A stretch of 39,113 nt of DNA from Candidatus Uhrbacteria bacterium. GTDB lineage: Bacteria; Patescibacteriota; Patescibacteriia; JACQRZ01. Below the pieces are notes generated by a model. The model was not told where the DNA came from and ran no database searches. It saw nothing but the letters and a program-made list of their open reading frames with translations. The stretch is from contig JACQRZ010000019.1 of the NCBI GenBank assembly GCA_016206235.1, positions 1-39,113 of the forward strand. The letters run 5' to 3'. How positions within the stretch are numbered: the stretch's first letter is position 1; every line of letters begins with the position of its first letter. Shown one piece after another: positions 17 through 33,173 of the stretch. Made by a program: the position numbers and the translations under genes.

Positions 17-44
17 GGAAATTGGAAATTAGAAATTAATAATG
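17..44. repeat. Degenerate tandem heptamer array: GGAAATT GGAAATT AGAAATT AATAATG, ending 1 nt before the pilO-like ATG
   Basis: Read directly. Units lie at 17-23, 24-30, 31-37 and 38-44. Positions 22-43 match the minus-strand sequence upstream of gpmI (10345-10366) at 21 of 22 nt. Confidence 0.8.
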
Positions 45-45
45 T

Positions 46-615
46 ATGCCCGTTGTTGACCACACAAAACAATTTCAGCTTCTAGAAAAAATTACGCCCC
101 TTCTTATCGTGTGTATTTTTGGCGTTGTGTGGGGTGTTTCGTATTACCTCTATATACAACATGAGCTTCAGCGGTACCTTTCAGGAGGTACGCTCCATCA
201 GGAAACGGTGAAGCGACAGCTTGCAGACCGCAGCTCCTATCTCGAGCGACTCAAACATTTTGCTGCACTCTACAATGAGCAGGGTACCGATCCAAAAAAC
301 GCATTTGCATCCATTGCACCTCTCAAAAAAGACATACCTTCTTTATTTCAACTGTATGAACAAATCGCATACAAGCACAATCTGGGGCTGCAATTAGTTG
401 ATATTATTGGTCAAGATGGAAGCCGCAAGGATGCTCCTGGAATTAAGGAAGTTATCATTGCACTTAAACTTACCAATGTTGATTACGAAAAAATGAAGAG
501 TTTGCTTGCCGATATTGAAACAAACGCTCGACTCACCGATGTACAGTCATTTGACTTTGACCCTGAGTCGCGCTCACTTTCTCTTAATGTGAAGATGTAC
601 TATTTTGCAAAATAA
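46..615 (+). CDS. pilO: PilO-like type IV pilus assembly protein
   Basis: 189-aa ORF with one N-terminal TM helix (ITPLLIVCIFGVVWGVSYYLYI), a coiled-coil-like segment and a C-terminal alpha/beta-like domain. It lies directly upstream of pilB. The family call is by architecture and context only. Confidence 0.5.
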   Translation: MPVVDHTKQFQLLEKITPLLIVCIFGVVWGVSYYLYIQHELQRYLSGGTLHQETVKRQLADRSSYLERLKHFAALYNEQGTDPKNAFASIAPLKKDIPSLFQLYEQIAYKHNLGLQLVDIIGQDGSRKDAPGIKEVIIALKLTNVDYEKMKSLLADIETNARLTDVQSFDFDPESRSLSLNVKMYYFAK

Positions 616-926
616 TGAGTTTTATGAAGTCATCACTTTCGCAACTCACAATAAAAAAGAATTCTCCGGTAAAAAATACGATCATGCTAGTGTGCGCAGT
701 GCTGATCGGTATCGCTGCGTATCTTATTTACGCATCGAGCATAAAATCTTTCTCGACTGGCATGGATGGAGATAGCAGTACCCCTCTTTCATTAAAGAGT
801 ATCAACTGGAACGAGACCCTCTTTTCAACGCCTGCATTTAAGGAGCTGAAAGTGATTGATGTGAGTGTTGATGCAACAGGGAAGCTCGGAAATTCAAATC
901 CATTCGAACGATTAAAAAAAGAATAG
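615..926 (+). CDS. Hypothetical membrane-anchored protein in the pilus operon
   Basis: 103-aa ORF whose start overlaps the pilO-like stop by 1 nt (TAATG). It has a single TM helix (IMLVCAVLIGIAAYLIYA) and no domain I recognise. Confidence 0.45.
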   Translation: MSFMKSSLSQLTIKKNSPVKNTIMLVCAVLIGIAAYLIYASSIKSFSTGMDGDSSTPLSLKSINWNETLFSTPAFKELKVIDVSVDATGKLGNSNPFERLKKE

Positions 927-936
927 GGTTTTAGGT

Positions 937-2655
937 ATGAATAAATTGGCTCAACTTCTCATCAATAAGGGGATGATCAAGGAAAGTGATTGGGATGTGC
1001 TCCAATCCGAGGCTGCCAAAGCACATATCCGCATTGAAGATCAGCTCGTAAAGAAAAAGATCATTTCAGAAAAAAATCTTGCCAATCTCCAAGGCGAGTT
1101 ATTTGGATTGCCATTTATTGATCTTGAAAAAGCAGATATTCCGCGCGAGATGCTCACTGTTATTCCTCAAGCAGTCGCGGAGAACTACGAGCTCGTCTTA
1201 TTTGAAAAAAAGGGACATGAAGTAAAAATCGCTCTTGTAGATCCTAGCAATTATCGTGCAATTGAAGCCATTGATTTTTGGGCAAAAAAAGAAGGGTACA
1301 AGCTCTCGCTCTATATCACGACGCTGAGTGGATATCGTAACGCCATGAAAAATTATGTTGTGGTAAAAAAAGAGGTACACGAGGCTCTTGACGTGCTTGA
1401 ACAACAGCATGCGTCCGACGCGCGCGGTAAGCGCCAGGAAAAACTCGTTGAAATTATTCGCAAAGCGCCAGTTGCAAAAATCGTTGCGCTCATGATTCAA
1501 GAAGCTGTTGATTTGAATACTTCCGATATTCACATCGAGCCGGGTTCCGCAGAGTCCCGTATCCGATTTCGCATTGATGGCATGCTGAAGACGTATCTTG
1601 CGTTTCCCACATCATTTCACACATCAATTGTATCGCGCATTAAAGTGCTTGCCGATCTGAAGATCGACGAAACGCGCATACCGCAAGATGGCCGTATTCG
1701 CATGAATATTTACGGGCAAGACATTAACTTGCGCGTCTCAACACTGCCCCTTATCGATAATGAAAAAGTGGTGATGCGTATTTTGCCGACTGCTTCAAAG
1801 GTGATCACCCTTCAAGAACTTGGTTTTTGGTCGCACGCTCTTGATGATCTCAATAGAATCATCGCCCGTCCTACAGGTGTATTACTCGTAAGCGGACCGA
1901 CAGGCTCTGGTAAATCAACAACGCTGTATTCGCTTTTGACAGCACTCAACAACGATAAGAGCAATATCACGACACTTGAAGATCCCGTTGAGTATTTTTT
2001 GAGTGGGGTCAACCAAGTGCAGATTAGCACTGAAGTAGGTTTAACGTTTGCCTCAGGTCTTCGGGCAATTTTGCGTCAGGACCCCAATATTGTGATGGTT
2101 GGTGATATCCGTGATAACGTGACAGCAGAACTTTCAACACACGCCGCTTTGACTTGTCATTTTATGCTTTCTACTATCCATGCAAAAGATGTGCTTGGCG
2201 TTATTCCACGTTTGATCGACATGCACGTTGAACCTTTTCTTATTTCTGCGGCGCTCAACACCATTATTGCACAGCGTTTAGTTCGCAAGCTGTGTGACAA
2301 GTGCAAAGAGCCTCAACAAATTCCTCAGTTGCTCGAAGCAGAGGTGCGCAAGGAACTTGACTTGATACCTCAGAAAGATGTGTTAGAAGGCATTGATCTT
2401 TCCACCCTCACTGTCTATCAAGGAAGGGGATGTGAGGCGTGCAATAAGAATGGATATAAGGGGCGGACCGTTGTTTCAGAACTCTTAGCTATGACAGAGA
2501 ACCTTACGCAGATCCTTTCAGCGAAATTTTCTCTTGAAGATCTTTCAAAAGAAATGAAGATCCAGGAAAAGATGACACTCAAGCAAGACGCAATTGTGAA
2601 AGCATTGAAAGGCCTTACGTCGATCGACGAGTTTATTCGGGTTACACGAGAGTAA
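937..2655 (+). CDS. pilB: Type IV pilus assembly (extension) ATPase PilB / GspE family
   Basis: 572 aa. It has Walker A GPTGSGKST, a Walker B region DPNIVMVGDIRD (Asp where GEIRD is usual), a His box LSTIHAKD and a tetracysteine motif CDKC...CEAC. Confidence 0.9.
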   Translation: MNKLAQLLINKGMIKESDWDVLQSEAAKAHIRIEDQLVKKKIISEKNLANLQGELFGLPFIDLEKADIPREMLTVIPQAVAENYELVLFEKKGHEVKIALVDPSNYRAIEAIDFWAKKEGYKLSLYITTLSGYRNAMKNYVVVKKEVHEALDVLEQQHASDARGKRQEKLVEIIRKAPVAKIVALMIQEAVDLNTSDIHIEPGSAESRIRFRIDGMLKTYLAFPTSFHTSIVSRIKVLADLKIDETRIPQDGRIRMNIYGQDINLRVSTLPLIDNEKVVMRILPTASKVITLQELGFWSHALDDLNRIIARPTGVLLVSGPTGSGKSTTLYSLLTALNNDKSNITTLEDPVEYFLSGVNQVQISTEVGLTFASGLRAILRQDPNIVMVGDIRDNVTAELSTHAALTCHFMLSTIHAKDVLGVIPRLIDMHVEPFLISAALNTIIAQRLVRKLCDKCKEPQQIPQLLEAEVRKELDLIPQKDVLEGIDLSTLTVYQGRGCEACNKNGYKGRTVVSELLAMTENLTQILSAKFSLEDLSKEMKIQEKMTLKQDAIVKALKGLTSIDEFIRVTRE

Positions 2656-2660
2656 CGGAG

Positions 2661-2681
2661 TTTCTAGTTTATAGTTTATAG
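2661..2681. repeat. Tandem heptamers TTTCTAG TTTATAG TTTATAG
   Basis: Read directly, just 3' of the pilB stop. It is the inverted complement of the 2705-2721 array. Confidence 0.8.
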
Positions 2682-2704
2682 AATTTGACGGAGAGAGATG
2701 GGCA

Positions 2705-2739
2705 CTATAAACTACAAACTACTCACTAAAAACTGATTG
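2705..2739. repeat. Tandem heptamers CTATAAA CTACAAA CTACTCA CTAAAAA CTGATTG, ending 1 nt before the pilT-like ATG
   Basis: Read directly. It contains the core ACTACAAACTA (2711-2721), which recurs at 17006-17016 and, reverse-complemented, at 31999-32009. Confidence 0.8.
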
Positions 2740-2740
2740 T

Positions 2741-3814: not shown

Positions 3815-3830
3815 ATGCAGGGGTAATGAC

Positions 3831-3858
3831 CAATTTCTAATTCCCAATATCCAAATAA
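3831..3858. repeat. Heptamer-periodic array CAATTTC TAATTCC CAATATC CAAATAA (the reverse complement resembles the GGAAATT/AGAAATT family)
   Basis: Read directly, in the convergent spacer between the pilT-like gene and pyrC. Confidence 0.65.
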
Positions 3859-3895
3859 CTCTCAAATTTGAAAAGGTTAAAAGAATTTTGGTATG

Positions 3896-3923
3896 CATTG
3901 GACATTGGATATTTGAAATTATT
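3896..3923. repeat. Heptamer array CATTGGA CATTGGA TATTTGA AATTATT
   Basis: Read directly. It abuts and slightly overlaps the 3' end of pyrC. Confidence 0.65.
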
Positions 3924-4932
3924 TTGGCACAACGTGCCAATTGAGTGTTTCCCCGGCTTTGAATGGAACGACACCGCCGTATTCGAGCGGAACGGTCCAT
4001 TCTTTTTTTTCGAGAACCAGTTTTTCTTGTGAAAGCGGCAGGCCATAACATTCTGCTCCAAACTGTGAGACGAAGCTTTCCAGTTTTTCAAGTGCGTTGT
4101 TTTGCTCAAAAAGGTCTGCCAAGAGTGGCAAAGCAACCGGTGCTGTAAAAATACCAGCCATGCCAGAACTCGCCTCTTTCTTTTTTTGGGCATGTGGTGC
4201 GCTGTCCGAGCCAAAAAAGAACTTCGGATTTCCGCTCAACGCTGCCATGAGAAGTGCATTTCGATCTTTCGGCGTTTTTGCAATTGGCTTGCAAAAGTGG
4301 TGGGTTTTCAGCATTCCGCCAATAACATCGTCGAGCGTGAGGATGAGGTGATGTACGGTGATGGTGGCAGCAACCGTGTCGGGCAGCTCGGAGATGAGAC
4401 TGACTGCCGCTGCGCTTGAGACGTGCTCAAAAACAATGTTGAGTCGAGGAAAATCTGCGACACTTTTTTTGAGTATGGGAAGAAATAACTCTTCTCGCTT
4501 GAGACAGAAAACGTTCGGAGTCGGGTCTTCCCCATGAAGCAATAGGAGCATTCCACACTCTTGCATCGCCTCAACTACAGGGTAGAGGCGATTAAAATCG
4601 CTTACACCGTCGTCAGAACCTGTCGTCATATTCTTTGGATACACCTTGCCGGCAACTGTTCCAATCTTTTTTGCCTCGGCGATCATTTCGGGCGTTGTAT
4701 TGTCATTCACATACAGTGTCATGAGCGGTTCAAATGCTTCTCCTTTGAGATTCGAAAGAATGCGTGCCCGATAACTTTCTACGTCTGCCGCAGTTAAGAT
4801 TTTTGGCGAGAGATTTGGCATTACCGTAGCGCGCGCGAATTGCGCTGCGCTCAAGGGCAGGACGTTGGCGAGCATATCACCATCTCGCAGATGAAGATGA
4901 AAGTCGTCGGGTTTTCGAATCTCGAGTTGCAT
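3919..4932 (-). CDS. pyrC: Dihydroorotase, class II (E. coli PyrC type)
   Basis: 337 aa. The N-terminus MQLEIRKPDDFHLHLRDGDML matches the PyrC metal-binding HxH signature. Length and collinearity fit homodimeric class II DHOase. Confidence 0.9.
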   Translation of the reverse strand: MQLEIRKPDDFHLHLRDGDMLANVLPLSAAQFARATVMPNLSPKILTAADVESYRARILSNLKGEAFEPLMTLYVNDNTTPEMIAEAKKIGTVAGKVYPKNMTTGSDDGVSDFNRLYPVVEAMQECGMLLLLHGEDPTPNVFCLKREELFLPILKKSVADFPRLNIVFEHVSSAAAVSLISELPDTVAATITVHHLILTLDDVIGGMLKTHHFCKPIAKTPKDRNALLMAALSGNPKFFFGSDSAPHAQKKKEASSGMAGIFTAPVALPLLADLFEQNNALEKLESFVSQFGAECYGLPLSQEKLVLEKKEWTVPLEYGGVVPFKAGETLNWHVVPK

Positions 4933-4941
4933 AAATTACTT

Positions 4942-5976: not shown

Positions 5977-6004
5977 TACTTCAGCTTATCATGCAACCAT
6001 ACCG

Positions 6005-6033
6005 TTGCAATATCGGGCTTTTCTCGGTATGAT
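6005..6033 (+). promoter_or_regulatory. Sigma-70-type promoter TTGCAA-N17-TATGAT upstream of glyQS
   Basis: The -35 lies at 6005-6010 and the -10 at 6028-6033, with a 17-nt spacer. It places the in-frame ATGs at 6029-6037 upstream of the predicted start site, which supports a glyQS start at 6065. Confidence 0.45.
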
Positions 6034-7348: not shown

Positions 7349-7356
7349 TCATAAAT

Positions 7357-7390
7357 GCTATATTGCTATATTGTTAAACAGCTAAACAGT
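7357..7390. repeat. Two tandem octamer pairs, GCTATATT x2 and TAAACAG(C/T) x2, followed by AACAAT reiterations
   Basis: Read directly in the glyQS/M16 spacer. Copies lie at 7357-7364 and 7365-7372, and at 7375-7382 and 7383-7390. AACAAT recurs at 7393, 7401 and 7412. Confidence 0.7.
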
Positions 7391-7426
7391 ATAACAATGT
7401 AACAATAATAAAACAATATATTTTCT

Positions 7427-8731: not shown

Positions 8732-10339
8732 TTACATTAAATCTTTGAGGAGGCTTCTACCTGTCATATCGGGCGAAGGTTTGAGATTGATGCGCTCAAG
8801 GAGTGTAGGCGCAACATCTGCCAAAATGCCGATCGGATTGACATTTTTTTTGAGAAATTCTACTTCTGCTTCTTGACGATCGCGGCGCTGCTCTTCATCA
8901 ACAAGGATAAATGGCACGGGACTTGTCGAATGTTCTTTGACTGACCTGTGGGTCATGAGATCTACTTTACTCTCAGCGTTGCCATGGTCGGCAGTAACGG
9001 CGGTAATGCCCCCAACTTTTTTATTTGCTTCCACCACTTTACTCACACACTCATCAGTTGCTTGGAGCGCTTTGATTGTTGCCTCAAGATTTCCGGTATG
9101 TCCAACCATGTCGGGGTTTGCAAAATTCACGAGGCAAAAATCATATTTTTTCTTTGCGATCTCTGCAACGAGTTTTTCTGCCACCTGATACGCGCTCATT
9201 TCAGGTTTCATGTCGTAGGTACGTACTTTCGGCGAGGGTACTAAGATACGATCTTCCCCCTTGTAAATTTCTTCTTGGCCGCCATTGAAAAAGTAGGTAA
9301 CGTGCGCGTATTTTTCTGTTTCTGCGATGCGGAGCTGTTTATATCCCTCGTTGGCTATCAAAGCGCCGAACGGCTCTTTGATATGTTGTGGAGGAAAGGC
9401 GACGGTTGCCTCGAGACCTGCTTCGTATTCAGTCATGGTAACAAAGACGAGATTTGAAGGCCGTTTTTCGCGAGTGAATCCATCGAAGGCATCGAGCACA
9501 AAACTTTGGGCAATTTGACGCGCACGGTCTTCGCGGAAGTTAAAAAAGATGACAGCGTCGTTATCGTTCACTGTCGCGAGTGGAGCATTTTTTCTGTTGG
9601 TAATAATGACAGGCTCAAGCATTTCATCGTCAACTTTTGCTTCATACGATTTTCTAAGCGCTTCGAGTGGATCATGGAATGGCGTACCCTTCCCTAATGT
9701 TAAAAGATCATAGCTTTTCTGTGTTCTGTCCCAGGTATTGTTACGATCCATGGCGTAAAAACGTCCGCATAGTGACGCGATCTGGCCGACACGCAGCTTT
9801 TTCATGAGTTTCTGAAGCTCTTTGAGTTCATTGAGTCCTGCTTGCGGGGCTGAATCGCGTCCATCAGTAATGCAGTGAATAGAGACGTCTTTAAGCTTTT
9901 TTTCTTTACAAAATTGGAGCAGCGCTTTGAGATGATTAATATGGCCATGGACGCCACCGGTGCTCGTAATGCCCAAAAAATGAAGATGAGATTTATTTTT
10001 TACAACATGCTCCGCAGCCTTTCGGAATGCTTCATTTTGAAGAAATGATTTATTCTCGATTGACATATTGATGCGAGGCAAATTTTGATAGACAACAAGA
10101 CCTGCACCAAGATTCAGGTGGCCTACTTCAGAATTTCCAACTTCACCCCATGGCAAGCCAACGGCAATTCCTGATGCATCAAGAGCGCCGTATGGATAGT
10201 GAGCTATGAGATCGTTCATGAATGGGCGCTTTGCCAAGTACATGGGATTGCTTTCCTCGATGGGGCTAATGCCAAAACCATCAAGTACAATCAGGACAAG
10301 TGGCGGACGTGATGAGCGAGAAGGCATACAGTGACTCAT
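8732..10339 (-). CDS. gpmI: 2,3-bisphosphoglycerate-independent phosphoglycerate mutase
   Basis: 535 aa. Motifs are LVLIVLDGFG, NSEVGHLNLGAG, DGRD and ADHGNAE, typical of iPGM. The start is 10339 or the in-frame ATG at 10327. Confidence 0.9.
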   Translation of the reverse strand: MSHCMPSRSSRPPLVLIVLDGFGISPIEESNPMYLAKRPFMNDLIAHYPYGALDASGIAVGLPWGEVGNSEVGHLNLGAGLVVYQNLPRINMSIENKSFLQNEAFRKAAEHVVKNKSHLHFLGITSTGGVHGHINHLKALLQFCKEKKLKDVSIHCITDGRDSAPQAGLNELKELQKLMKKLRVGQIASLCGRFYAMDRNNTWDRTQKSYDLLTLGKGTPFHDPLEALRKSYEAKVDDEMLEPVIITNRKNAPLATVNDNDAVIFFNFREDRARQIAQSFVLDAFDGFTREKRPSNLVFVTMTEYEAGLEATVAFPPQHIKEPFGALIANEGYKQLRIAETEKYAHVTYFFNGGQEEIYKGEDRILVPSPKVRTYDMKPEMSAYQVAEKLVAEIAKKKYDFCLVNFANPDMVGHTGNLEATIKALQATDECVSKVVEANKKVGGITAVTADHGNAESKVDLMTHRSVKEHSTSPVPFILVDEEQRRDRQEAEVEFLKKNVNPIGILADVAPTLLERINLKPSPDMTGRSLLKDLM

Positions 10340-10340
10340 T

Positions 10341-10368
10341 TCTAATTATCAATTTCTAATTTCCAACA
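10341..10368. repeat. Heptamer array TCTAATT ATCAATT TCTAATT TCCAACA (the minus strand reads TTGGAAATTAGAAATTGATAATTAGAA before the gpmI ATG)
   Basis: Read directly. It shares 21 of 22 nt with 22-43 upstream of the pilO-like gene. Confidence 0.8.
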
Positions 10369-10415
10369 TTTATAGAAGAGGTTTGCGACGATCATTAAGA
10401 AATAAATTCTTCCAT

Positions 10416-10684
10416 GGAGTATAAGATACGAGCCAGCATGGCTTGAGAGGCTCAAAACTGAGGCGATTTCACGAAACCGACGACGAAGCTGTATATAACA
10501 TACTGCGAGGAGGAGTGACAAAGAAATCGACCAGTTTTGAACCTCCCGAAGGGCGAGCCTTGTTTGCTTTATTTTCTTCGTTGCTCGTCGCTAGCGATGG
10601 TTTACATCGCGTCGCTCCTCGCGCCACGAATCTCAAGCAAACAGGAGACACGCTCAACACATACTGGCTCGGATCTTATACCCC
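10416..10684. other. Rod-like structured element (candidate ncRNA or MITE-like palindromic element), class unknown
   Basis: Terminal 18-nt inverted repeat at 10419-10436 and 10664-10681 pairs at 17 of 18 positions and extends to 19 of 21. Nested perfect 8-bp helix pairs 10441-10448 with 10631-10638. Further helices pair 10478-10488 with 10576-10590, and there is a branch hairpin at 10594-10610. C[GAAG]G sits near the centre. The region is GC-richer than the other spacers and has no credible ORF. Confidence 0.4.
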
Positions 10685-10736
10685 TAAGGTATCACACAAT
10701 GATTCGCTGAGCAACATCATTCGCAGGTGCTTCGCG

Positions 10737-10765
10737 TTGACAAATGAAGAGAAAAAGACTATATT
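10737..10765 (+). promoter_or_regulatory. Sigma-70-type promoter TTGACA-N17-TATATT for tRNA-Leu
   Basis: Perfect -35 at 10737-10742, 17-nt spacer, -10 at 10760-10765. The tRNA begins 15 nt after the -10. Confidence 0.55.
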
Positions 10766-10779
10766 TGACTGATAAATAA

Positions 10780-10863
10780 GCCGCGGTGTCGAAATTGGTA
10801 AACGATGGCGACTCAAAATCGCCCGGGAGCAATCCCTTGTGGGTTCGAGTCCCACCCGCGGCA
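10780..10863 (+). tRNA. tRNA-Leu (anticodon CAA), no encoded CCA
   Basis: Manual cloverleaf. Acceptor GCCGCGG/CCGCGGC, anticodon loop CUCAAAA, long variable arm CCGGGAGCAATCCCTTG, T arm GTGGG-TTCGAGT-CCCAC, discriminator A. Confidence 0.9.
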
Positions 10864-10870
10864 AATACAT

Positions 10871-11104
10871 ATGCGAAAAGAGTTTTTATTGTTCATGGTT
10901 GGGAGGGGCATCCCGAAGAAGGTTGATAGCATTGCTGTCTTTTCTGACAACGATTCATATGTTCCGTTCGACAATCAAGATGATTTTAAAAATACACTCG
11001 GTTCAGCAATAGTTATTGAACATTCTGCAGGTCATTTTAGTGGTGCCATGGATAGCTGTATCGAGCCACCAATAGCCCTTGAGTCTTTGCTGAAATTATT
11101 GTAA
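10871..11104 (+). pseudogene. Remnant of a YdeN/RBBP9-type alpha/beta serine hydrolase (frameshifted N-terminus fused to the C-terminus; the core is deleted)
   Basis: ATG 10871 reads MRKEF.... The +2 frame at 10879-10923 encodes RVFIVHGWEGHPEEG and then TGA. One extra A in the A4 run at 10876-10879 would restore MRKRVFIVHGWEG. The in-frame tail IAVFSDNDSYVPF...EHSAGHFSG is the family C-terminus. About 100 aa, including the nucleophile elbow, are absent. Confidence 0.55.
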
Positions 11105-12773: not shown

Positions 12774-12847
12774 CGCGGGGTGGAGAAGTCTGGCATCTCG
12801 CTTGGCTCATAACCAAGAGATCGCGGGTTCAAATCCCGCCCCCGCAA
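12774..12847 (+). tRNA. Initiator tRNA-fMet (anticodon CAT), no encoded CCA
   Basis: C1xA72 mismatch (CGCGGGG/CCCCGCA), anticodon loop CUCAUAA, T arm GCGGG-TTCAAAT-CCCGC, close to E. coli tRNA-fMet. The anticodon stem CTTGG/CCAAG has only two of the three canonical G:C pairs. Confidence 0.9.
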
Positions 12848-12850
12848 TAA

Positions 12851-12880
12851 AATAATTCACGCGAAAGCGTGGGTTATTTT
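12851..12880 (+). terminator. Intrinsic terminator after tRNA-fMet
   Basis: A stem of about 12 bp, including G-U pairs, closes a GCGAAAGC tetraloop and is followed by TTTT. Confidence 0.6.
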
Positions 12881-13021: not shown

Positions 13022-13040
13022 AATCCCGCCCCCGCAACCA
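13022..13040 (+). repeat. Duplicated 3' end of tRNA-fMet (16-nt direct repeat AATCCCGCCCCCGCAA) followed by CCA
   Basis: 13022-13037 is identical to 12832-12847. This copy continues CCA, whereas the intact gene continues TAA. Confidence 0.75.
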
Positions 13041-13251
13041 AAAGGGACTGTTTCGCACTGGGACGGTCTTTTTTGATTTGTTGACCCAGCACTAACTCTT
13101 AAAAAAGTAATTTTATACGCTCTTAGCCATTACTCGGCAAGAAAGAACGCACAAGTATTATTTCACGTTCTCTGCAGAAAGTAGTGCTGGGTTGACTTTG
13201 ATGAATACTCAGCGTATCCTGATATCTATCATTCCTGCACTACTTAATATT

Positions 13252-14516: not shown

Positions 14517-14521
14517 TGAAA

Positions 14522-14549
14522 AAAGTATCCTTATAAAAGTATCCTTATA
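14522..14549. repeat. Perfect 14-nt (2 x 7) tandem duplication of AAAGTATCCTTATA
   Basis: Copies lie at 14522-14535 and 14536-14549, followed by a partial third unit AAAGGAT. Confidence 0.85.
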
Positions 14550-14566
14550 AAGGATTCTTTTTTCTT
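14539..14566 (+). terminator. Weak intrinsic terminator after tRNA(CAT)
   Basis: A 6-bp ATCCTT/AAGGAT stem with a short loop is followed by a T-rich run (TTCTTTTTTC). Confidence 0.35.
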
Positions 14567-16996: not shown

Positions 16997-17031
16997 GTAC
17001 TACCCACTACAAACTATTCACTACTCACTAA
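16997..17031. repeat. Tandem heptamers GTACTAC CCACTAC AAACTAT TCACTAC TCACTAA, ending 4 nt before the parB ATG
   Basis: Read directly. It contains CACTACAAACTAT (17005-17017), which is identical to the reverse complement of 31998-32010. Confidence 0.8.
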
Positions 17032-17035
17032 GATT

Positions 17036-17920
17036 ATGTCTTCTCCATCACTCGGCCGGGGACTCGACGCTCTTCTTTCGCGAAAGCTTCCAGTTTCCAG
17101 CACGCCACCTTCGCCACGCCATACCAATGACGGTACGCCTATTCAGGTGTCTGTAGACGGTATCAAGGCAAACAACAAGCAGCCGCGATACAGTTTTAAC
17201 GATGACCAGCTCAATGAGCTTGCCGAATCTATCCGCGAGTATGGCATCATACAGCCACTCGTTGTCATGAGGGAGGGCGAAGGATATCGACTGATTGCTG
17301 GCGAACGCCGACTGCGCGCTGCAAAAAAAATCGGACTCTCAACGGTTCCTGTTGTTGTTCGTGATGCTGCAGACCATGAACGACTCGCCTTAGCGCTTAT
17401 TGAAAATGTCCAGCGCGTTGATCTTAACCCAATTGAATTGGCGTTCGGGTATAAACAGCTTTTGGAGGAGTTTCAAATATCGCATGAAGAATTGGGCAGG
17501 CGGATCGGAAAAAGCAGGCCTGTTATCACCAATACTATACGCATGCTTCAGCTACCCCAAATGATTCAAGAAGGCATTAAGGAGGGAAAGATTAATGAAG
17601 GACATACGCGGCATCTTTTATCTGTCCGTGATGAGGAAAAACAACGAGAGCTTTACAATTCGATCGTTGCAAACAAGCTTACCTATGGTGACGCAGAGCG
17701 TATCATGCGCCAGATGACTGGCAAGCCAGCACCTCAGGCACGAAGAGTGAAGGGAAATCTGAGCCCCGACCCGCTTATTGCACAAAAAGAAGGGCACCTG
17801 CGTGAGTATTTTGGAACAAAAGTGCATATTGAAAAAAACGGCGAAAAGGGTAGTATTGTGATTGATTTTTATTCGCTTGAGCAGATGCGAGATTTGATCA
17901 GTAAGCTTTTAGGTGCATGA
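17036..17920 (+). CDS. parB: ParB/Spo0J partition protein
   Basis: MSSPSLGRGLDALL is the typical ParB N-terminus, followed by the GERRLRAAK arginine patch and an HTH. The ORF-track GTG start at 16958 would translate the repeat array. Confidence 0.9.
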   Translation: MSSPSLGRGLDALLSRKLPVSSTPPSPRHTNDGTPIQVSVDGIKANNKQPRYSFNDDQLNELAESIREYGIIQPLVVMREGEGYRLIAGERRLRAAKKIGLSTVPVVVRDAADHERLALALIENVQRVDLNPIELAFGYKQLLEEFQISHEELGRRIGKSRPVITNTIRMLQLPQMIQEGIKEGKINEGHTRHLLSVRDEEKQRELYNSIVANKLTYGDAERIMRQMTGKPAPQARRVKGNLSPDPLIAQKEGHLREYFGTKVHIEKNGEKGSIVIDFYSLEQMRDLISKLLGA

Positions 17921-18026
17921 ATCCCGTTAGAGTTTTACCAGAATAGTAAATAATAAAGAAACTATGAATAACAGCAAAGATCATTTTTTCGATATCACAA
18001 CAACTATTAAAAAACTCTAACGGGAT
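17921..18026 (+). promoter_or_regulatory. 16-bp perfect inverted repeat spanning the entire parB-murA spacer and enclosing an 18-codon uORF
   Basis: ATCCCGTTAGAGTTTT (17921-17936) pairs with AAAACTCTAACGGGAT (18011-18026). The right arm overlaps the murA ATG at 18025. The uORF at 17964-18020 (MNNSKDHFFDITTTIKKL) ends inside the right arm. Confidence 0.6.
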
Positions 18027-19278
18027 GAAATTTGTTATTAACGGCGGCAAGAAGCTGTCCGGAAGCATTCCCGTTTCGGGAATGAAAAACGCGGCGACAC
18101 CCATTATCGCGGCAGCACTCCTCACAGATGAGGAGTGTATTATTCATAATGTACCCCATATTCGCGACGTGGAAGTTATGCTTAGCATTTTGGAAAGCAT
18201 GGGAAGTCGTGTCGCATGGACGGGTGAGCATGATGTCACGATTTGCACTGCAGGTGCGCGCGCAGATACCATAGATGAAAAGACAATGAAACGTCTTCGC
18301 TCATCCATTCTTTTTATGGGTCCTTTTCTTTCGCGTTTTGAGCATGCATCAATTGCTGAGCCCGGAGGATGTATTATTGGCAACCGTCCCTTACATACAC
18401 ACTTTCATGCTTTGGAAAAACTTGGCGCGACGATTTCGCGAACAAACGGCCATTATGAAATTTCGCGAACCAACCTTCAAGGCACACGTGTAGTGCTTTT
18501 GGAGGCATCGGTGACTGCGACGGAAAACGCGCTTATGGCAGCCTGTATGGCGACTGGCACGACCACGATTATCAATGCAGCATACGAACCTCATGTTGCT
18601 GACCTTGCGAACTTTCTGTGCGCAATGGGAGCAAGGATCGACGGTATTGGTACGTCAACACTTACTATAGAAGGAGTGCATGCCCTGCACGGAACAGAAT
18701 ACACGATTATTCCCGATACTATTGAAGCCGGAACATTTCTTATCCTTGGACTGGCTACCAAAAGTGAAATTACTGTTCAGCATGCACGTTCTGATCACAT
18801 GGATCTCGTGCTGGAATGGCTCTACCAAATAGGCGCACGCTTTGATAGACAAGATGATTCCATTACACTGCGCCTATCGTCTGATTTGCGCGCAGCGCAT
18901 CTTGAATTCTATACGTATCCTCGGCTGCCAAGCGACCTCCAATCAATATTTGGCGTACTTGCAACGCAGCTTCGCGGTACAACGCTCATCCATGAAAAGA
19001 TGTTTGAAGGGCGTCTTGGCTACATTCAAGAATTGATTAAAATGGGTGCAAATGCCGTTATCTGTGATCCGCACCGAGTCCTTATTACCGGACCAACGCC
19101 GCTCTATGGCCAGGAGATACGTACATATGATTTACGTGCTGGAGCCGCGATGATCGTTGCCGGCCTGCTTGCAAGTGGACAGACAATCATTCATGATGTT
19201 GATATTGTTGATCGTGGCTACGAGTCACTCGAAACCCGACTTGCCGGATTAGGCGCAGATATCACACGAGTAGCGTAA
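18025..19278 (+). CDS. murA: UDP-N-acetylglucosamine 1-carboxyvinyltransferase
   Basis: 417 aa with the active-site Cys loop EPGGCIIGNRPL. It is collinear with MurA. Confidence 0.9.
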   Translation: MKFVINGGKKLSGSIPVSGMKNAATPIIAAALLTDEECIIHNVPHIRDVEVMLSILESMGSRVAWTGEHDVTICTAGARADTIDEKTMKRLRSSILFMGPFLSRFEHASIAEPGGCIIGNRPLHTHFHALEKLGATISRTNGHYEISRTNLQGTRVVLLEASVTATENALMAACMATGTTTIINAAYEPHVADLANFLCAMGARIDGIGTSTLTIEGVHALHGTEYTIIPDTIEAGTFLILGLATKSEITVQHARSDHMDLVLEWLYQIGARFDRQDDSITLRLSSDLRAAHLEFYTYPRLPSDLQSIFGVLATQLRGTTLIHEKMFEGRLGYIQELIKMGANAVICDPHRVLITGPTPLYGQEIRTYDLRAGAAMIVAGLLASGQTIIHDVDIVDRGYESLETRLAGLGADITRVA

Positions 19279-19382
19279 GCACGAAATCCTAAATTCGAAG
19301 CACGAAACAAAATTAAAATTCAAAAATAAAAAAGTTAAACAATTATGTTTCGAATTTCGATATTCGAATCTCGAATTTTACC
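19279..19382. repeat. Heptamer-periodic spacer: GCACGAA ATCCTAA ATTCGAA GCACGAA ... TTTCGAA TTTCGAT ATTCGAA TCTCGAA TTTTACC
   Basis: Read directly. The TTCGAA-centred units at 19348-19375 are inverted relative to 19279-19306, with CGAAAC/GTTTCG pairing. Confidence 0.7.
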
Positions 19383-19387: not shown

Positions 19388-20659
19388 ATGTCCATTAACG
19401 ATATTGTTCCACAATCAAAAGACACCCCACGCTTTCCGTATGTTACATGGATAGTCATTTTCGGTATTGCAGTCGGTGGCAGTTTTTATGGCGGCTATCT
19501 CATGGGCGGGAAAGGCGTATCTCTTCCTGTTCAAGCGCCTTTAGGGCAAGAAAAAGAAGGAATCGTAAAAAATTTCGAGCGACCAGCACCGTCATATCTC
19601 AACAAAGATGTTGATTTTAATCTGTTCTGGGATGTTTGGAAACGCGTAAAAAGTGAGTATATTTCCAAAGATACTTCAGACACTCAGCTATTTTACGGAA
19701 GTCTTCGCGGTATTGTTTCTGCGCTCGATGATCCCTATTCTGAATTTTTCGACCCTGACCTTGCAAAACAATTTGATGAAAGCCTCTCGGGAAGTTTTGA
19801 AGGTATTGGAGCTGAAATTGGAATGAAGAACAAACAGCTTATTATTGTTGCTCCACTCGCGGGAACACCGGCAGAAAAAGCTGGTCTTAAAGCAGGAGAT
19901 CATATTTTGGCAGTTGATAAAAAAAGCACTGTTGATATGTCGATTGACATGGCAGTAAGTAACATTCGTGGCAAGGGTGGTACCAAGGTAACGCTGACGA
20001 TTTATCGGATAGGCGATAAGGAAGCACATGATGTTACGATTACTCGGCAAAAAATTGTGGTGCCATCAGTTGTGTGGGAACTGAAACCCGAATCAATCGG
20101 TTATATTAAGATATCGCATTTTAATCAGGATACTCAAGATCGATTTGCCGATGCGGTGCGCGAGGTATTAAGTAAGAACCCAAAAGGTTTAGTCATTGAT
20201 TTGCGAAATAATCCCGGAGGATATCTTGATACTGCAGTTCGCATTGCAAGTTACTGGGTTGAAGGCAAGACTATTGTTATTGAGAAATATGACGGAGAGC
20301 GTTCAGAAGAGTATCGAGCGCGCGGGCGTGCAAGTTTGAAAAATCTTAAAACCGTTGTGGTGGTCAACGAGGGAAGTGCATCAGCGTCAGAAATTGTGGC
20401 AGGTGCTTTGCAAGATTATGGAAAAGCAACGCTGGTTGGCAAAAAAACATTTGGCAAAGGATCGGTACAAACACTTCAGAAACTTGAAGATGGATCAGCG
20501 TTAAAGCTTACCATTGCCACATGGCTTACACCAAAAGGAAGATCCATCAACCAGGAGGGCATTACCCCGGATATTACCGTTGAACCGGCAAAAGGTGAGG
20601 TGTTAGCGGACAAAGAGAAGGATGTCCAACTCGAAAAGGCACTTGAGTTGCTGAAATAG
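19388..20659 (+). CDS. ctpA: Carboxy-terminal processing (S41, tail-specific) protease
   Basis: 423 aa with an N-terminal TM helix, a PDZ segment (GIGAEIG...AGLKAGDHILAVD), the catalytic Ser region GSASASEI and the Lys region TFGKGSVQ. Confidence 0.85.
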   Translation: MSINDIVPQSKDTPRFPYVTWIVIFGIAVGGSFYGGYLMGGKGVSLPVQAPLGQEKEGIVKNFERPAPSYLNKDVDFNLFWDVWKRVKSEYISKDTSDTQLFYGSLRGIVSALDDPYSEFFDPDLAKQFDESLSGSFEGIGAEIGMKNKQLIIVAPLAGTPAEKAGLKAGDHILAVDKKSTVDMSIDMAVSNIRGKGGTKVTLTIYRIGDKEAHDVTITRQKIVVPSVVWELKPESIGYIKISHFNQDTQDRFADAVREVLSKNPKGLVIDLRNNPGGYLDTAVRIASYWVEGKTIVIEKYDGERSEEYRARGRASLKNLKTVVVVNEGSASASEIVAGALQDYGKATLVGKKTFGKGSVQTLQKLEDGSALKLTIATWLTPKGRSINQEGITPDITVEPAKGEVLADKEKDVQLEKALELLK

Positions 20660-20687
20660 GTTATAGGTTATAGCTTGTAGATTGTAG
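20658..20687. repeat. Tandem heptamers AGGTTAT AGGTTAT AGCTTGT AGATTGT
   Basis: Read directly, starting within the ctpA stop codon. The reverse complement belongs to the CTAYAAN family. Confidence 0.8.
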
Positions 20688-20716
20688 AAAAAATCCCTGC
20701 AAGAGCAGGGATTTTA
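20688..20716. terminator. Bidirectional intrinsic terminator between convergent ctpA and rpmA
   Basis: An 11-bp stem AAAATCCCTGC/GCAGGGATTTT closes an AAGA loop, with A-rich sequence 5' and T-rich sequence 3'. Confidence 0.7.
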
Positions 20717-20737
20717 TGATTTCGATGTTAAAGAATG

Positions 20738-27144: not shown

Positions 27145-27178
27145 GAGCGCTCGGAGTAGAAAGAATCTGTTTATAACT

Positions 27179-28546: not shown

Positions 28547-28553
28547 CAATACT

Positions 28554-29474
28554 ATGGAGCTACCAATTCTTCACAATGAACCACTTTCAAAGCACACCAT
28601 ATTTCAAATAGGAGGACCTGCCCGATATTTTTTTCGCGTAAAAAATTATGTTGATCTCAAGGAGATTGTCCAATGGGCACAGCAGCATGAGGTGCCGTTG
28701 GCCGTGCTCGGCGGAGGGAGTAATGTGCTTGCAAGCGATAAGGGGTTCGATGGTTTGGTATTAAAAATGGAAGATCGTACGATTGACATTCAAGGATCGT
28801 TTATCAATGCGGGAGCTGGAGCGATTACCGCAATGGTCTCAAAGCTCACAGTTGAAGCCGGACTTTCAGGACTCGAGTGGGCATATGGTATTCCAGGAAC
28901 TATTGGTGGTGCGGTGCGAGGAAATGCCGGCGCTTTTGGCGGATCATTTTCCGACATCGTTTCCCTTGTTGAAATGCTGGATCCAAAAACACTTGAAATT
29001 CACCGCGTTACGGGCGAGGGGATGCAGTTTCAATATCGGCGCAGCATGTTAGCCAACACACCCTGGATCGTTACATATGCCATACTCAAAATGGACGTTT
29101 CAACACCAGAGATGTGCAAAGAACGCATGCAAGAGTTTTTAGACCAAAAAAAGACCAATCAACCATTGGGTATGCAATGCGCAGGATGTGCATTTAAGAA
29201 CGTTCCCGTTGCTTCCATCACAAAATCAATAGAATTGCCTGTCGAATTTTTGCAGACGGGCCGTGTGCCTGCAGGATATTTGGTTGATAAGGCAAAAATG
29301 AAAAATCATGTCTGCGGCCGTGCTATGGTCTCTCCCAAGCATGCAAATTTCATTGTCAATCTTGGTGGAGCTACAGCGATGGACGTGGTAGAATTAATGA
29401 AGATTATTAAGGATAGGGTATACCAGGAGTTTGGCGTAGTGCTCGAGGAAGAAATACAGTACATCGGTTTTTAG
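28554..29474 (+). CDS. murB: UDP-N-acetylenolpyruvoylglucosamine reductase
   Basis: 306 aa with an FAD-binding N-terminus (FQIGGPARYF, LGGGSNVL) and the GSFFKN-like motif AGCAFKN. Confidence 0.9.
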   Translation: MELPILHNEPLSKHTIFQIGGPARYFFRVKNYVDLKEIVQWAQQHEVPLAVLGGGSNVLASDKGFDGLVLKMEDRTIDIQGSFINAGAGAITAMVSKLTVEAGLSGLEWAYGIPGTIGGAVRGNAGAFGGSFSDIVSLVEMLDPKTLEIHRVTGEGMQFQYRRSMLANTPWIVTYAILKMDVSTPEMCKERMQEFLDQKKTNQPLGMQCAGCAFKNVPVASITKSIELPVEFLQTGRVPAGYLVDKAKMKNHVCGRAMVSPKHANFIVNLGGATAMDVVELMKIIKDRVYQEFGVVLEEEIQYIGF

Positions 29475-29500
29475 CTTCTAGCTTCTAGTCACTAATCAAG
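29473..29500. repeat. Tandem heptamers AGCTTCT AGCTTCT AGTCACT AATCAAG
   Basis: Read directly. The array starts inside the murB stop codon. Confidence 0.8.
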
Positions 29501-29521
29501 AGAAACTATTTACTATAAAAA

Positions 29522-31027: not shown

Positions 31028-31036
31028 CCACAGCCT

Positions 31037-31948: not shown

Positions 31949-31983
31949 CAATATAAAGAAACACAAAAAGCACTCAAGAGTAA

Positions 31984-32018
31984 ATAGCTTATAGCTTATA
32001 GTTTGTAGTGAGTAGAAT
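31984..32018. repeat. Tandem heptamers ATAGCTT ATAGCTT ATAGTTT GTAGTGA GTAGAAT, ending 3 nt before the aguA ATG
   Basis: Read directly. This is the reverse-complement orientation of the CTAYAAN/TCACTAN family. Confidence 0.8.
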
Positions 32019-32021
32019 GTT

Positions 32022-33062
32022 ATGAATCCACCGATAGAGCAGGGGTTTCAAATGCCAGCAGAATGGGCTCGTCATGAGGGTACGTGGCTTGCTTGGCCAT
32101 ATGATGACACTACCTTTCCCGAGAGAGTAGAGAACGTCCAGAAGATTTTTTCGCACATGGTTGCTGCTTTAAGCACAAGCGAAAAAATCTTTCTTATTGT
32201 GCTCGATGAGGCAATGAAAAAAATGGCCGAGCATATGCTTCAGAGTTCGGGTGCACAAATGGATGCCGTGTATTTCTATAAAGTTCCTTTTGCAGACGTG
32301 TGGACACGTGATTATGGCCCGCTCACCATTACAAACAAAGAAGACAACAAGCGAGCATGGACTAAGTGGGTGTACAATGCCTATGGTAAAAGTCATGACC
32401 CCTATTATGCGCCCCTTCTTGCGGATAATGAGGTATTCAATATCATTGCACTTGAAGGACAAAAATTCGAACCAGGTATTGTGCTCGAAGGAGGTGCGAT
32501 TGAAGTGAATGGGGAAGGAGTGTGTCTCACGTGCGAGCAGACGCTTCTCAATCCAAATCGCAACCCCATTCTTTTTCGAGAAGATATGAAAAAATATCTT
32601 CATGATTTTTTGGGGGTGAAAAAGACGATTTGGTTGAAAGAGGGTCTTGTCAACGACCATACAGATGGCCATATCGAAGAGTTGGCACGCTTTGTCTCGC
32701 CAGACACCATTGTCTGCGCGTATGAAGACGATCCGTCTGATGAAAATTATGAAATCCTGCAGAAGAATTACGAAGTCATCAAGCAAGCAACAGATCTCAA
32801 CGGCAATCCTTTTCGAATCATCACATTGCCGATGCCTCATGTGAACTACGATGACGGCACAAAGGCGCCCGTTTCCTATTGCAATTTTTATATTGCAAAC
32901 ACGGTCGTGCTTGCGGCACTATTTCAAGACCCGAACGATCAAGAGGCGCTTTCTATTTTACAGTCCTGTTTTCCTGATAAAAAAGTGATCGGCCTTGATT
33001 GCTCAGATATCATCTATGGTGGAGGGGCGATTCATTGCATGACGCAACAGGTGCCAGAGTAG
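32022..33062 (+). CDS. aguA: Agmatine deiminase
   Basis: It has FQMPAEWARHEGTWLAWP, VWTRDYGP and the C-terminal catalytic Cys in GGGAIHCMTQQVP. Confidence 0.9.
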   Translation: MNPPIEQGFQMPAEWARHEGTWLAWPYDDTTFPERVENVQKIFSHMVAALSTSEKIFLIVLDEAMKKMAEHMLQSSGAQMDAVYFYKVPFADVWTRDYGPLTITNKEDNKRAWTKWVYNAYGKSHDPYYAPLLADNEVFNIIALEGQKFEPGIVLEGGAIEVNGEGVCLTCEQTLLNPNRNPILFREDMKKYLHDFLGVKKTIWLKEGLVNDHTDGHIEELARFVSPDTIVCAYEDDPSDENYEILQKNYEVIKQATDLNGNPFRIITLPMPHVNYDDGTKAPVSYCNFYIANTVVLAALFQDPNDQEALSILQSCFPDKKVIGLDCSDIIYGGGAIHCMTQQVPE

Positions 33063-33087
33063 CGCGAGGCTTCGCGGCATTCTTTTT
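33063..33087 (+). terminator. Possible intrinsic terminator after aguA
   Basis: A CGCGA-GGCT-TCGCG hairpin is followed by GCATTCTTTTT. A second GACGCC/GGCGTC hairpin lies at 33098-33117. Confidence 0.4.
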
Positions 33088-33119
33088 CACTACGTGCGAC
33101 GCCCCGGTGAGGCGTCTCA

Positions 33120-33147
33120 TTGCATTTTCATCAGTAATCATTACAAT
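33120..33147 (+). promoter_or_regulatory. Promoter TTGCAT-N16-TACAAT upstream of secA
   Basis: -35 at 33120-33125 and -10 at 33142-33147. The predicted leader would consist of the AATCACT heptamers. Confidence 0.45.
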
Positions 33148-33173
33148 ACACTAATCACTAATCACTAACCACT
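33132..33173. repeat. Tandem heptamers CAGTAAT CATTACA ATACACT AATCACT AATCACT AACCACT, ending 3 nt before the secA ATG
   Basis: Read directly. Confidence 0.8.

Follow-up and report, generated by a model that had tools for sequence, protein, structure and literature searches.

Intergenic repeats with heptanucleotide units have been known in bacteria since about 1990; to our knowledge, no function has been demonstrated for this class, nor has its preference for 7 nt been accounted for. The cyanobacterial STRR1–3 families have the units CCCCAGT, TTGGTCA and CAACAGT. This report describes tandem heptamer arrays between the genes of a Candidatus Uhrbacteria bacterium (Patescibacteriota), located on contig JACQRZ010000019.1 of assembly GCA_016206235.1. 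The whole stretch of 39,113 nt is referred to as the window. The arrays belong to two dispersed families and lie beside the start and stop codons of the flanking genes.

TAACTGA repeats are found in marine Beggiatoaceae, some Cyanobacteria and Bacteroidetes in sets of 2–6 copies (MacGregor 2015, PMC4679880). Most sets are located a few nucleotides upstream of start codons, some extend over the upstream stop codon, and Shine-Dalgarno (SD) sites are rare. In forward orientation the repeat places stops in three frames, and strains differ in steps of 7 nt. No RNA structure is predicted; a translational role was proposed, the function being unknown (PMC4679880). STRR and other heptamer repeats are described from the cyanobacteria Calothrix and Nostoc PCC 7120, and GGGNATC repeats from Xanthomonas and Nostoc; the Nostoc heptamers lie near or overlap start codons, are transcribed and are enriched in non-coding DNA (PMC4692102; bioRxiv 10.1101/2022.06.06.494920). 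As far as the later accounts of Mrazek et al. 2007 go (PMC4679880, PMC4692102), heptanucleotides are the commonest class of long simple sequence repeats (SSRs; units of 5–11 nt), a slippage bias was proposed for them, and repeats of 5–11 nt are tied to large, GC-rich, free-living genomes. At the hut terminator of Bacillus subtilis, the RNA motif of the HutP protein is (UAG-N4)3 with sequence-independent spacers (PMC2425495).

Period-7 arrays and their two families

The period-7 arrays of the window are real and statistically strong. Tandem Repeats Finder (TRF) reports 20 arrays, 12 of which have period 7. Eleven of these 12 are located in spacers (including 15–37, 2659–2681, 2704–2734, 10338–10363, 16999–17030, 19348–19378, 20656–20673, 29472–29488, 31984–32001 and 33149–33173), at or beside places where the first-pass annotation, made from the letters alone, had seen degenerate heptamers. 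The twelfth (36414–36428) is a two-unit repeat within a coding open reading frame (ORF). Lag-7 identity in non-coding DNA is 0.318 compared with a baseline of ~0.265 and is echoed at lag 14 (0.295) and lag 21; in coding DNA it is 0.248.

A stringent rule requires at least 80% identity across two unit shifts, with 200 dinucleotide-preserving shuffles as the null. By this rule the ~3.2–3.3 kb of non-coding DNA contain six period-7 arrays, whereas the shuffles contain 0.05 on average and none of the 200 reaches six. The 36 kb of coding DNA contain none, and periods 4–6 and 8–12 show no comparable excess under the same rule. The excess over shuffled, composition-matched sequence and the enrichment over coding DNA, both of which the first-pass annotation had proposed as genome-wide checks, are thus present in the window, and the stringent arrays are confined to non-coding DNA. 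Such confinement is expected, as the unit length of 7 cannot be divided by three and the units of family B (see below), in TAG orientation, bring stops into all frames. Per 10 kb, the window contains 1.79 stringent arrays, compared with 0.18 in a control set comprising 945 kb at 87 loci of other bacteria. This set was obtained from a metagenome scan with Ctp alignment, which was keyed on very conserved peptide words and yielded mostly distant bacteria (at most 53% identity).

Tested one by one, 9 of the 22 spacers of at least 21 nt are significant (p ≤ 0.04, seven of them at p = 0.003), and three further spacers are borderline (p ~0.06). The strong excess stands, but the statement that most spacers consist of such arrays has to be reduced to about half of them (~10–11 with the weaker cases). 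Altogether, 13 arrays account for 373 nt, or 11.4% of the non-coding DNA of the window.

An assembly artefact is very unlikely, because contig L003 of an independent Logan assembly (run SRR12113385) matches 17849–19318 at 100% identity, including the first 40 nt of the spacer at 19279, and because the arrays (17–35 nt) are shorter than a sequencing read. Additionally, the arrays respect ORF boundaries exactly, and no evidence supporting an assembly or sequencing artefact was found; the chance of one is negligible. Positions 1–19 of L003 are a Nextera adaptor remnant (AGATGTGTATAAGAGACAG), so the first bases of that contig are not genomic.

The search for a core was unbiased in that all trinucleotides were tested for recurrence at distance 7 in non-coding DNA. 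TAG/CTA recurs 26 times at this distance versus 1.8 expected (z 18), 19 times at distance 14, 9 times at distance 21 and 0–3 times at each other distance. Eight spacer arrays contain chains of 2–5 exact cores each, and only two chains of two units are present in the 36 kb of coding DNA. These eight loci form family B, (TAG-N4)n, which reads (CTA-N4)n on the opposite strand. Family A consists of units of the TTGGAAA / TTAGAAA type with a TTCGAAA variant and is present at 4–5 loci. The arrays are as follows, with units given 5' to 3'.

A1, 15–44, plus strand, family A: TTGGAAA TTGGAAA TTAGAAA TTAATAA (TRF; spacer p = 0.003). 5' leader of gene 46–615, ending 3 nt before ATG; zero C; leader RNA less structured than all 200 shuffles (z +2.0).
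B1, 2658–2681, plus strand, family B: (GAG)TTTC TAG TTTA TAG TTTA TAG (TRF; spacer p = 0.003). 3' trailer of PilB, beginning 3 nt past the stop codon; stops in three frames within 23 nt.
B2, 2705–2739, minus strand, family B: plus strand CTATAAA CTACAAA CTACTCA CTAAAAA CTGATTG (TRF). 5' leader of PilT, ending 1 nt before ATG; includes TCACTAA; inverted partner of B1, the B1-B2 hairpin (−17.2 kcal/mol, z −1.2) not being significant.
A2, 3831–3858, minus strand, family A: reverse complement TTGGATA TTGGGAA TTAGAAA TTGG (family A match, weak periodicity). 3' trailer of PilT; zero G on the sense strand.
A3, 3896–3921, plus strand, family A: CATTGGA CATTGGA TATTTGA AATTA (spacer p = 0.003; family pattern match). 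3' trailer of the minus-strand gene 3919–4932, overlapping its stop codon; inverted partner of A2.
A4, 10340–10368, minus strand, family A: sense TGTTGGAAA TTAGAAA TTGATAA TTAGAA, then ATG (TRF; p = 0.04). 5' leader of the iPGM gene (8732–10339, minus strand), abutting the start codon; zero C.
B3, 17000–17034, minus strand, family B: plus strand CTACCCA CTACAAA CTATTCA CTACTCA CTAAGAT (TRF; p = 0.01). 5' leader of ParB (start ATG 17036), ending 1 nt before ATG; includes TCACTAA.
Weak array, 19283–19308, no strand assigned: GAAATCC TAAATTC GAAGCAC GAAAC (whole spacer p = 0.06). 3' trailer of MurA; partly complementary to the array at 19348–19378 (pair fold z −1.5).
A5, 19348–19378, no strand assigned, family A-like: TTTCGAA TTTCGAT ATTCGAA TCTCGAA TTT (TRF period 7, 4.4 copies). 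5' leader of Ctp, ending 9 nt before ATG; one mismatch from the family A unit; orientation ambiguous because the core TTCGAA is palindromic.
B4, 20657–20687, plus strand, family B: TAG GTTA TAG GTTA TAG CTTG TAG ATTG TAG (TRF; p = 0.003). Begins with the TAG stop codon of Ctp; downstream lies a bidirectional terminator hairpin (20690–20720, fold z −4.1).
B5, 29472–29488, plus strand, family B: TAG CTTC TAG CTTC TAG (TRF; spacer p = 0.003). The first TAG is the MurB stop codon.
B6, 29492–29519, minus strand, family B: plus strand CTAATCA AGAGAAA CTATTTA CTATAAA. 5' leader of the decarboxylase gene at 29522, ending 2 nt before ATG; TCACTAA at 29489 overlaps its 5' end.
B7, 31985–32015, plus strand, family B: TAG CTTA TAG CTTA TAG TTTG TAG TGAG TAG (TRF; p = 0.003). 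6 nt upstream of the agmatine deiminase ATG 32022; the sole leader array in TAG orientation.
B8, 33149–33176, minus strand, family B: plus strand CACTAAT CACTAAT CACTAAC CACTGTA (TRF; p = 0.003). 5' leader of SecA, abutting ATG 33177; two TCACTAA copies; one G in 28 nt.

The units had been described as degenerate heptamers drifting by 1–3 substitutions. In family B the TAG/CTA core is fixed instead and the variation is restricted to four of the seven positions, with an N4 identity of ~56% between neighbouring units (hand count). When arrays are delimited by score alone, the core contains none of their 10 mismatches (p roughly 0.004, uncorrected for phase choice). Furthermore, arrays of different spacers are near-copies of each other. 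B4 and B7 (20653–20690 and 31981–32017) are identical at 30 of 36 positions. In family A, A1 and A4 (21–43 and 10340–10368, reverse strand) agree at 21 of 22 positions, A1 and A2 (11–37 and 3831–3860, reverse strand) at 24 of 26, and A2 and A4 at 22 of 27. The PilT and ParB leader arrays share 23 of 27 positions, and further alignments between spacers reach 17/18 and 17/19. All of these alignments have z 5.8–11 compared with shuffles, and arrays that are 11–30 kb apart show 77–95% identity over 18–36 nt. The consensus patterns of both families give 9 matches versus 1.2 expected and 14 versus 0.7 expected.

Single words recur as well. TCACTAA is present five times in the window, always in non-coding DNA, on the sense strand and 11–33 nt upstream of an ATG, in the leaders of PilT, ParB, the decarboxylase gene and SecA (twice). 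CTACTCA and CTACAAA are each found in three separate arrays, and 12 pairs of units lie within one mismatch of each other, where 2.7 are expected from composition (P = 0.002). Because of these near-copies between spacers and the recurring words, the arrays are assigned to two dispersed families of repeats whose internal period is 7, rather than to independent local slippage. Units without G or without C (8 of 12, ~45% expected) are not significant as a sign of selection.

Three of the originally proposed arrays need comment. The array at 3831–3858 is weak as a periodic array and clear as a family A copy. The one at 16997–17031 is a spacer array only if ParB starts at ATG 17036, not at GTG 16958. 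The Pfam domain ParB_N begins at residue 63 of the long ORF, and its position supports the start at ATG 17036. Over-long ORF calls of this kind can swallow array leaders, which is a warning for annotation. The repeat at 14522–14549 is no heptamer array but a duplication of period 14 next to a tRNA, with a hairpin. There, the copies of a perfect 14-mer (AAAAGTATCCTTAT, 2.2 copies, 14521–14551) lie immediately behind the second tRNA-Met. They overlap a small hairpin (ATCCTTATAAAGGAT) that has a T-run after it, and probably represent the terminator of the tRNA, outside the heptamer families.

Position of the arrays and genomic setting

Eight of the 13 arrays are 5' leaders that end 0–9 nt before ATG. 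The other five are 3' trailers, three of which start in the upstream stop codon (Ctp at 20657, MurB at 29472 and the minus-strand gene 3919–4932 at 3919–3921). Contact with start codons and with stop codons, both noted at first pass, is therefore confirmed. The arrays are located at intra-operon junctions and convergent gene ends, and in four spacers an inverted leader array comes after a trailer array. Read on the sense strand, leaders have CTA-N4 in four of five cases (family B) and TTGGAAA in two of two (family A), whereas trailers carry TAG-N4 in three of three and TTTCCAA in two of two. The occurrence in both orientations had been taken to speak against a strand-specific role. Orientation instead follows leader or trailer position, although this trend is only suggestive (Fisher p = 0.14, family B).

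Array leaders fold no better than shuffles, or worse (z +2.0, +1.2, +0.7 and +0.4). RNA hairpins or terminators were rejected as an explanation, since the array pairs of the window show no better folding than shuffles, the sole significant structure being the classical terminator at 20690–20720. An Rfam scan found only two tRNAs and no RNA family overlapping any heptamer array. The spacers with the best sigma-70-like promoters (16102, 14385, 12732 and 10737) contain no arrays, and the promoter matches that do overlap arrays (15–43 and 2685–2713) are weak (9/12); a function as promoters was discarded on these grounds.

An SD-like site within 18 nt of the start codon is present in only 1–3 of the 38 genes of the window. 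A required substitute for SD sites was likewise rejected, as these are nearly absent with or without an array and the SD-less leaders of relatives show no periodicity. The related contigs L004 and L007 also have few SD sites, and for several of its genes L005 (52% GC) has GGAGG. The use of SD sites seems variable across the clade. Primase initiation sites are CTA/CTG trinucleotides. This candidate was dropped since neither strand of the apparent single replichore is richer in CTA arrays than the other. SSRs for phase variation (contingency loci), which are long perfect tracts that switch surface or virulence genes from the promoter or ORF, do not fit either, as the arrays are degenerate, contain at most two perfect units and lie beside housekeeping genes (parB, murA/ctp, murB, secA, pgm).

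The window is a fragment of a bacterial chromosome with 38 genes and carries housekeeping genes. It contains pilB, pilT, proS, genes for an M16 peptidase and iPGM, gdh, zwf, parA, parB, murA, ctp and rpmA. Further genes are a mraY-murD-ftsW-murG-murC-murB cluster, a polyamine pathway, secA, a HEPN/nucleotidyltransferase pair, genes for HIT, NUDIX and Ham1 proteins, agmatine deiminase and a decarboxylase. The GC content is ~45%, and the cumulative GC skew climbs steadily from end to end. ARAGORN calls three tRNAs, of which Rfam finds two. The tRNA-Leu(CAA) at 10780–10863 is an ARAGORN call below the Rfam gathering threshold. It overlaps the start of ORF 10805–11104, a serine-hydrolase-like fragment, and the region 10369–11104 may be decayed. 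The nucleotidyltransferase/HEPN pair (36246–36957, toxin-antitoxin type) is followed by 649 nt (36958–37606) without a called gene or arrays, possibly a pseudogene or foreign insert.

Other repeats are present in the window. The whole ParB-MurA spacer (17921–18026) has the two arms of a perfect 16-nt inverted repeat, ATCCCGTTAGAGTTTT and AAAACTCTAACGGGAT, at its ends, 74 nt apart; it is a MITE-like insertion or a long stem-loop ending at the MurA ATG. The 3' end of a tRNA-Met, AATCCCGCCCCCGCA (12832–12852), is repeated 190 nt downstream (13022–13042) and is followed there by ACCA. The second copy, at which Rfam and ARAGORN make no call, could be the remnant attachment site of a tRNA-integrated element or the tRNA-like 3' end of an unannotated RNA. 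An array of period 8 (7356–7407; TGCTATAT twice, then TATAACAA TGTAACAA TAATAAAACAATAT) is located upstream of the M16 peptidase gene. The 14-mer AACAATGTAACAAT is shared with another period-8 array, located at 164–191 and upstream of Ctp in L009, a distant contig of the candidate phyla radiation (CPR).

Relatives, turnover and proposed role

The gene order ParA-ParB-MurA-Ctp-L27 is kept in relatives whose Ctp is 60–69% identical. The spacers between these genes compare as follows.

ParA-ParB spacer: 81 nt in the window; 6–10 nt in relatives, no arrays.
ParB-MurA spacer: 104 nt in the window; 16–33 nt in relatives, no arrays.
MurA-Ctp spacer: 109 nt in the window; 18–38 nt in relatives, no arrays.

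Since the orthologous spacers are short and array-free, the arrays are regarded as a recent, lineage-specific addition. Judging from these spacers, the arrays have lengthened intercistronic and gene-end spacers of this lineage that are 6–38 nt long in relatives. In two syntenic relatives the leaders are G-poor, SD-less and without periodicity. The search for other strains with 7-nt changes in copy number found no second strain. The closest Ctp was 69% identical, a contig scan with PilB gave distant hits only, exact-protein look-ups with L27, PilT, agmatine deiminase and Ctp had no entry, and the one contig obtained, through MurA, is identical to the window.

Exactly two perfect adjacent units are present in 7 of the 13 arrays and three in none. 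Between B4 and B7, one and the same column differs in both doubled units (GTTA GTTA and CTTA CTTA), which argues for homogenisation within each array. Units therefore appear to turn over by gain and loss of 7 nt through slipped strands, as these patterns show indirectly. The three causes suggested at first pass, slippage, an SD-independent unstructured leader and binding arrays for a protein, all remain live.

Heptamer arrays are also found elsewhere. Two contigs of the control set, L009 (Ctp 53% identical, 35% GC) and L023, are as rich as the window in period-7 arrays, made of other units. Inverted pairs of heptamer arrays at L009 10423–10499 and 1732–1825 and at L023 4470–4553 form hairpins with z −7.6, −3.2 and −3.1; these pairs are REPIN-like doublets with tandem-heptamer arms. 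Unit families shared with L009 (9 versus 3.1 expected, nominal P = 0.011) were considered as a link and rejected, as the TAG core is specific to the window and the orientation rules are not transferable. The 87 control loci contain no (TAG-N4)4, and the lag-7 TAG signal is specific to the window. In IMG/VR, on the other hand, many viral contigs contain (TAG-N4)5 with variable spacers, at several dispersed sites each (L089, L092, L095, L120, L134, L175), so that TAG-core heptamer arrays are not unique to the genome of the window. Some of these contigs have 66% GC and the units TAGTGAG, TAGTTTG and TAGCGAA. TAG-core arrays may be a wider, undescribed motif of phage genomes.

The preferred reading combines dispersed heptamer arrays of the STRR/TAACTGA type, turnover by slippage and a role on the transcript at cistron boundaries; as a joint statement it is evenly balanced. 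Within it, confidence in the identity of the arrays and in the turnover of units is high, and the proposed function is tentative and on balance somewhat doubtful. According to this proposal, an action on the transcript at cistron boundaries would be the reason why the arrays are kept and why the same words are found at many loci. The arrays would supply G-poor or C-poor, structure-free RNA right after stops and before starts in an SD-poor organism. Such RNA could be a landing sequence for ribosomes in S1-type, SD-independent initiation. Alternatively, by analogy with HutP, a cooperative protein that binds single-stranded RNA could land there and read a 3-nt core every 7 nt. Cold-shock proteins have footprints of roughly 7 nt. 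The proteins encoded in the window include no obvious candidate for an array-binding protein. Action on the transcript is preferred to action on promoter DNA because of the contact with stop and start codons, the orientation trend, the avoidance of promoter spacers and the invariant core beside a free N4.

Several points weigh against this proposal. The arrays are missing from the closest available relatives and, not being conserved there, could be neutral. They are not needed for initiation, because arrays are missing from half of the spacers, among them spacers of essential genes, and most genes are SD-less. Leaders with CUA-N4 are unfit for a UAG-reading protein such as HutP. The orientation rule is derived from 13 arrays (p = 0.14 as above) and is partly forced by the inverted pairs, and where chains are defined by TAG, the finding of an invariant TAG core is in part circular. 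The function is one that we infer, and the arrival of identical words at many loci is unexplained. In a bolder form, (UAG/CUA-N4)n and (UUGGAAA)n would constitute a genome-wide cis code at cistron boundaries. It would be read by an oligomeric or cooperative single-strand RNA-binding protein (a HutP/TRAP-like ring or a cold-shock domain) and would set termination-reinitiation and de novo initiation on polycistronic mRNAs. This form is improbable. If true, it would give the long-unexplained heptamer repeats of bacteria a translational function that is testable in a minimal genome.

The arrays may also be neutral microsatellites, made and eroded wherever selection allows in a lineage biased towards 7-nt slippage, with the TAG core and the shared words arising from seeding at TAG stops, AT-rich composition and slippage at TAG...TAG microhomology. 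The array-free spacers of relatives, the two perfect adjacent units in 7 of 13 arrays, the homogenisation within arrays, the one-mismatch cores at array ends (GAG, TAA, CTG, TTA, CAA) and the sporadic arrays of other units in the unrelated contigs L009 and L023 are consistent with this explanation, as is the report of Mrazek et al., as relayed by later papers, that heptamers are the commonest long SSRs, for which polymerase slippage was proposed as the cause. Independent local slippage, however, does not predict the clustering of units (12 versus 2.7 pairs), the 77–95% identity of arrays that are 11–30 kb apart, the presence of CTACTCA and CTACAAA in three arrays each or that of TCACTAA in four leaders. 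Furthermore, a streamlined CPR genome is expected to lose useless spacer DNA. Neutrality is considered unlikely, though it is a serious possibility. In another explanation, the arrays belong to small mobile or copy-pasted elements (REPIN- or MITE-like). They would be the arms of inverted hairpin doublets, and a transposase whose gene lies at another place in the genome would have spread them. Dispersed copies are present in both orientations, and the order array, gap, inverted array is seen at 2658/2705, 3831/3896, 19283/19348 and 29472/29492 of the window as well as at L009 1732/1803 and 10423/10473 and L023 4470/4528, where the hairpins of the pairs are far more stable than shuffles (z −7.6, −3.2, −3.1 and −2.7). 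GTAG, the tetranucleotide conserved next to E. coli REPs, is carried by family B, a possible parallel. The pairs of the window itself fold no better than shuffles (z −1.2, −1.5 and +0.1), many arrays are single (15–44, 17000, 20657, 31985, 33149), and the window encodes neither a transposase nor RAYT. Target-site duplications or defined ends are not seen there, and the number and order of units differ among copies. Such elements are therefore a very improbable source of the arrays.

Iteron- or operator-like sites in double-stranded DNA, with a core read at 7-bp intervals by a transcription factor or nucleoid protein, would explain the invariant 3-bp core, the variable spacers, the arrays of 3–5 units and the inverted arrangements, which are typical of dimeric DNA binders. 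Precedents are the heptad repeats of the ctxAB promoter, promoter effects at Nostoc recO and SARP heptameric direct repeats. The arrays of the window, on the contrary, avoid the spacers with the best promoters, lie at intra-operon junctions and convergent ends and touch start or stop codons instead of −35/−10 positions, and a period of 7 bp places successive sites on different faces of the helix. This explanation is slightly less probable still than mobile elements. Finally, the trailers could be stop walls that catch read-through or frameshifted ribosomes at gene ends. Three TAG-N4 units stop every frame because 7 equals 1 modulo 3. All three family B trailers close frames 0, +1 and +2 within 23 nt, two of them starting at the gene's own TAG, and MacGregor noted the same property for TAACTGA (PMC4679880). 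The family A trailers leave frames open, though, four of the five family B leader arrays are in CTA orientation, five units exceed the need, and AT-rich spacers hold stops anyway. A stop wall is accordingly hardly credible.

Comparison with described systems

The first-pass annotation did not recognise the arrays as a described repeat family. They match the published intergenic heptamer direct repeats (long SSRs, STRR and TAACTGA) in kind. As for TAACTGA, one heptamer word forms tandem sets at many intergenic loci of one genome; eight leader arrays end 0–9 nt before ATG, three trailers run from a stop codon, and SD sites are found in 1–3 of 38 genes. Unlike TAACTGA, the units are TAG-N4 with a variable spacer and TTGGAAA, and the arrays are degenerate, not perfect. 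They occupy leaders and trailers in opposite orientation, inverted pairs are frequent, and the host is a small-genome CPR bacterium. With STRR the window shares tandem heptanucleotides in several families per genome, over-represented in non-coding DNA and near starts or promoters. One or two mismatches separate the Nostoc unit TTTTGAA from TTTCGAA of the window and ATTTGAA of L009. STRR differ in belonging to large genomes, where long arrays (up to 26 or more units) are frequent and some units are G-rich and form quadruplexes; the arrays of the window have 3–5 AT-rich units with an invariant 3-nt core. The units are neither TAACTGA nor STRR1–3 words, and because the unit word differs, the arrays are separate from these families in the narrow sense. 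Long SSRs, as far as the accounts of them extend, share the heptamer unit, a sporadic phylogeny, the exclusion from coding DNA of units that are not multiples of three and a proposed origin by slippage. They differ from the window, which has 45% GC and a CPR host and whose arrays are too short and degenerate for 'long' perfect SSRs.

The arrays at 2665, 20657, 29472 and 31985 resemble the HutP site in having 3–5 UAG-N4 units on the sense strand. HutP has two sites that flank a G+C-rich terminator stem, with a 12–17 nt linker, and neither such a stem nor a second UAG site on the same strand is present here, the partner arrays being CUA-N4. No HutP domain is found among the proteins of the window. 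Also unlike HutP, half of the family B arrays are CUA on the transcript, and many housekeeping genes are concerned instead of one regulated operon. Like REP and REPIN sequences, the arrays are short, dispersed, extragenic and often inverted doublets; unlike them, they are direct heptamer arrays and not palindromes, the doublets of the window fold no better than shuffles, and no RAYT is encoded in the window.

No report of heptamer repeats in CPR/Patescibacteria was found in the literature, and the present case extends them to this group, which is known for small genomes. New features are the invariant 3-nt core, the clean placement at cistron boundaries and the SD-poor genome. The case offers (UAG-N4)n, (CUA-N4)n and (UUGGAAA)n as concrete RNA ligands, for which a proteome of CPR size would give a short list of candidate binders. 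The arrays of the window share every behavioural feature of the STRR/TAACTGA class, but not its unit sequences, and are a new member of this class.

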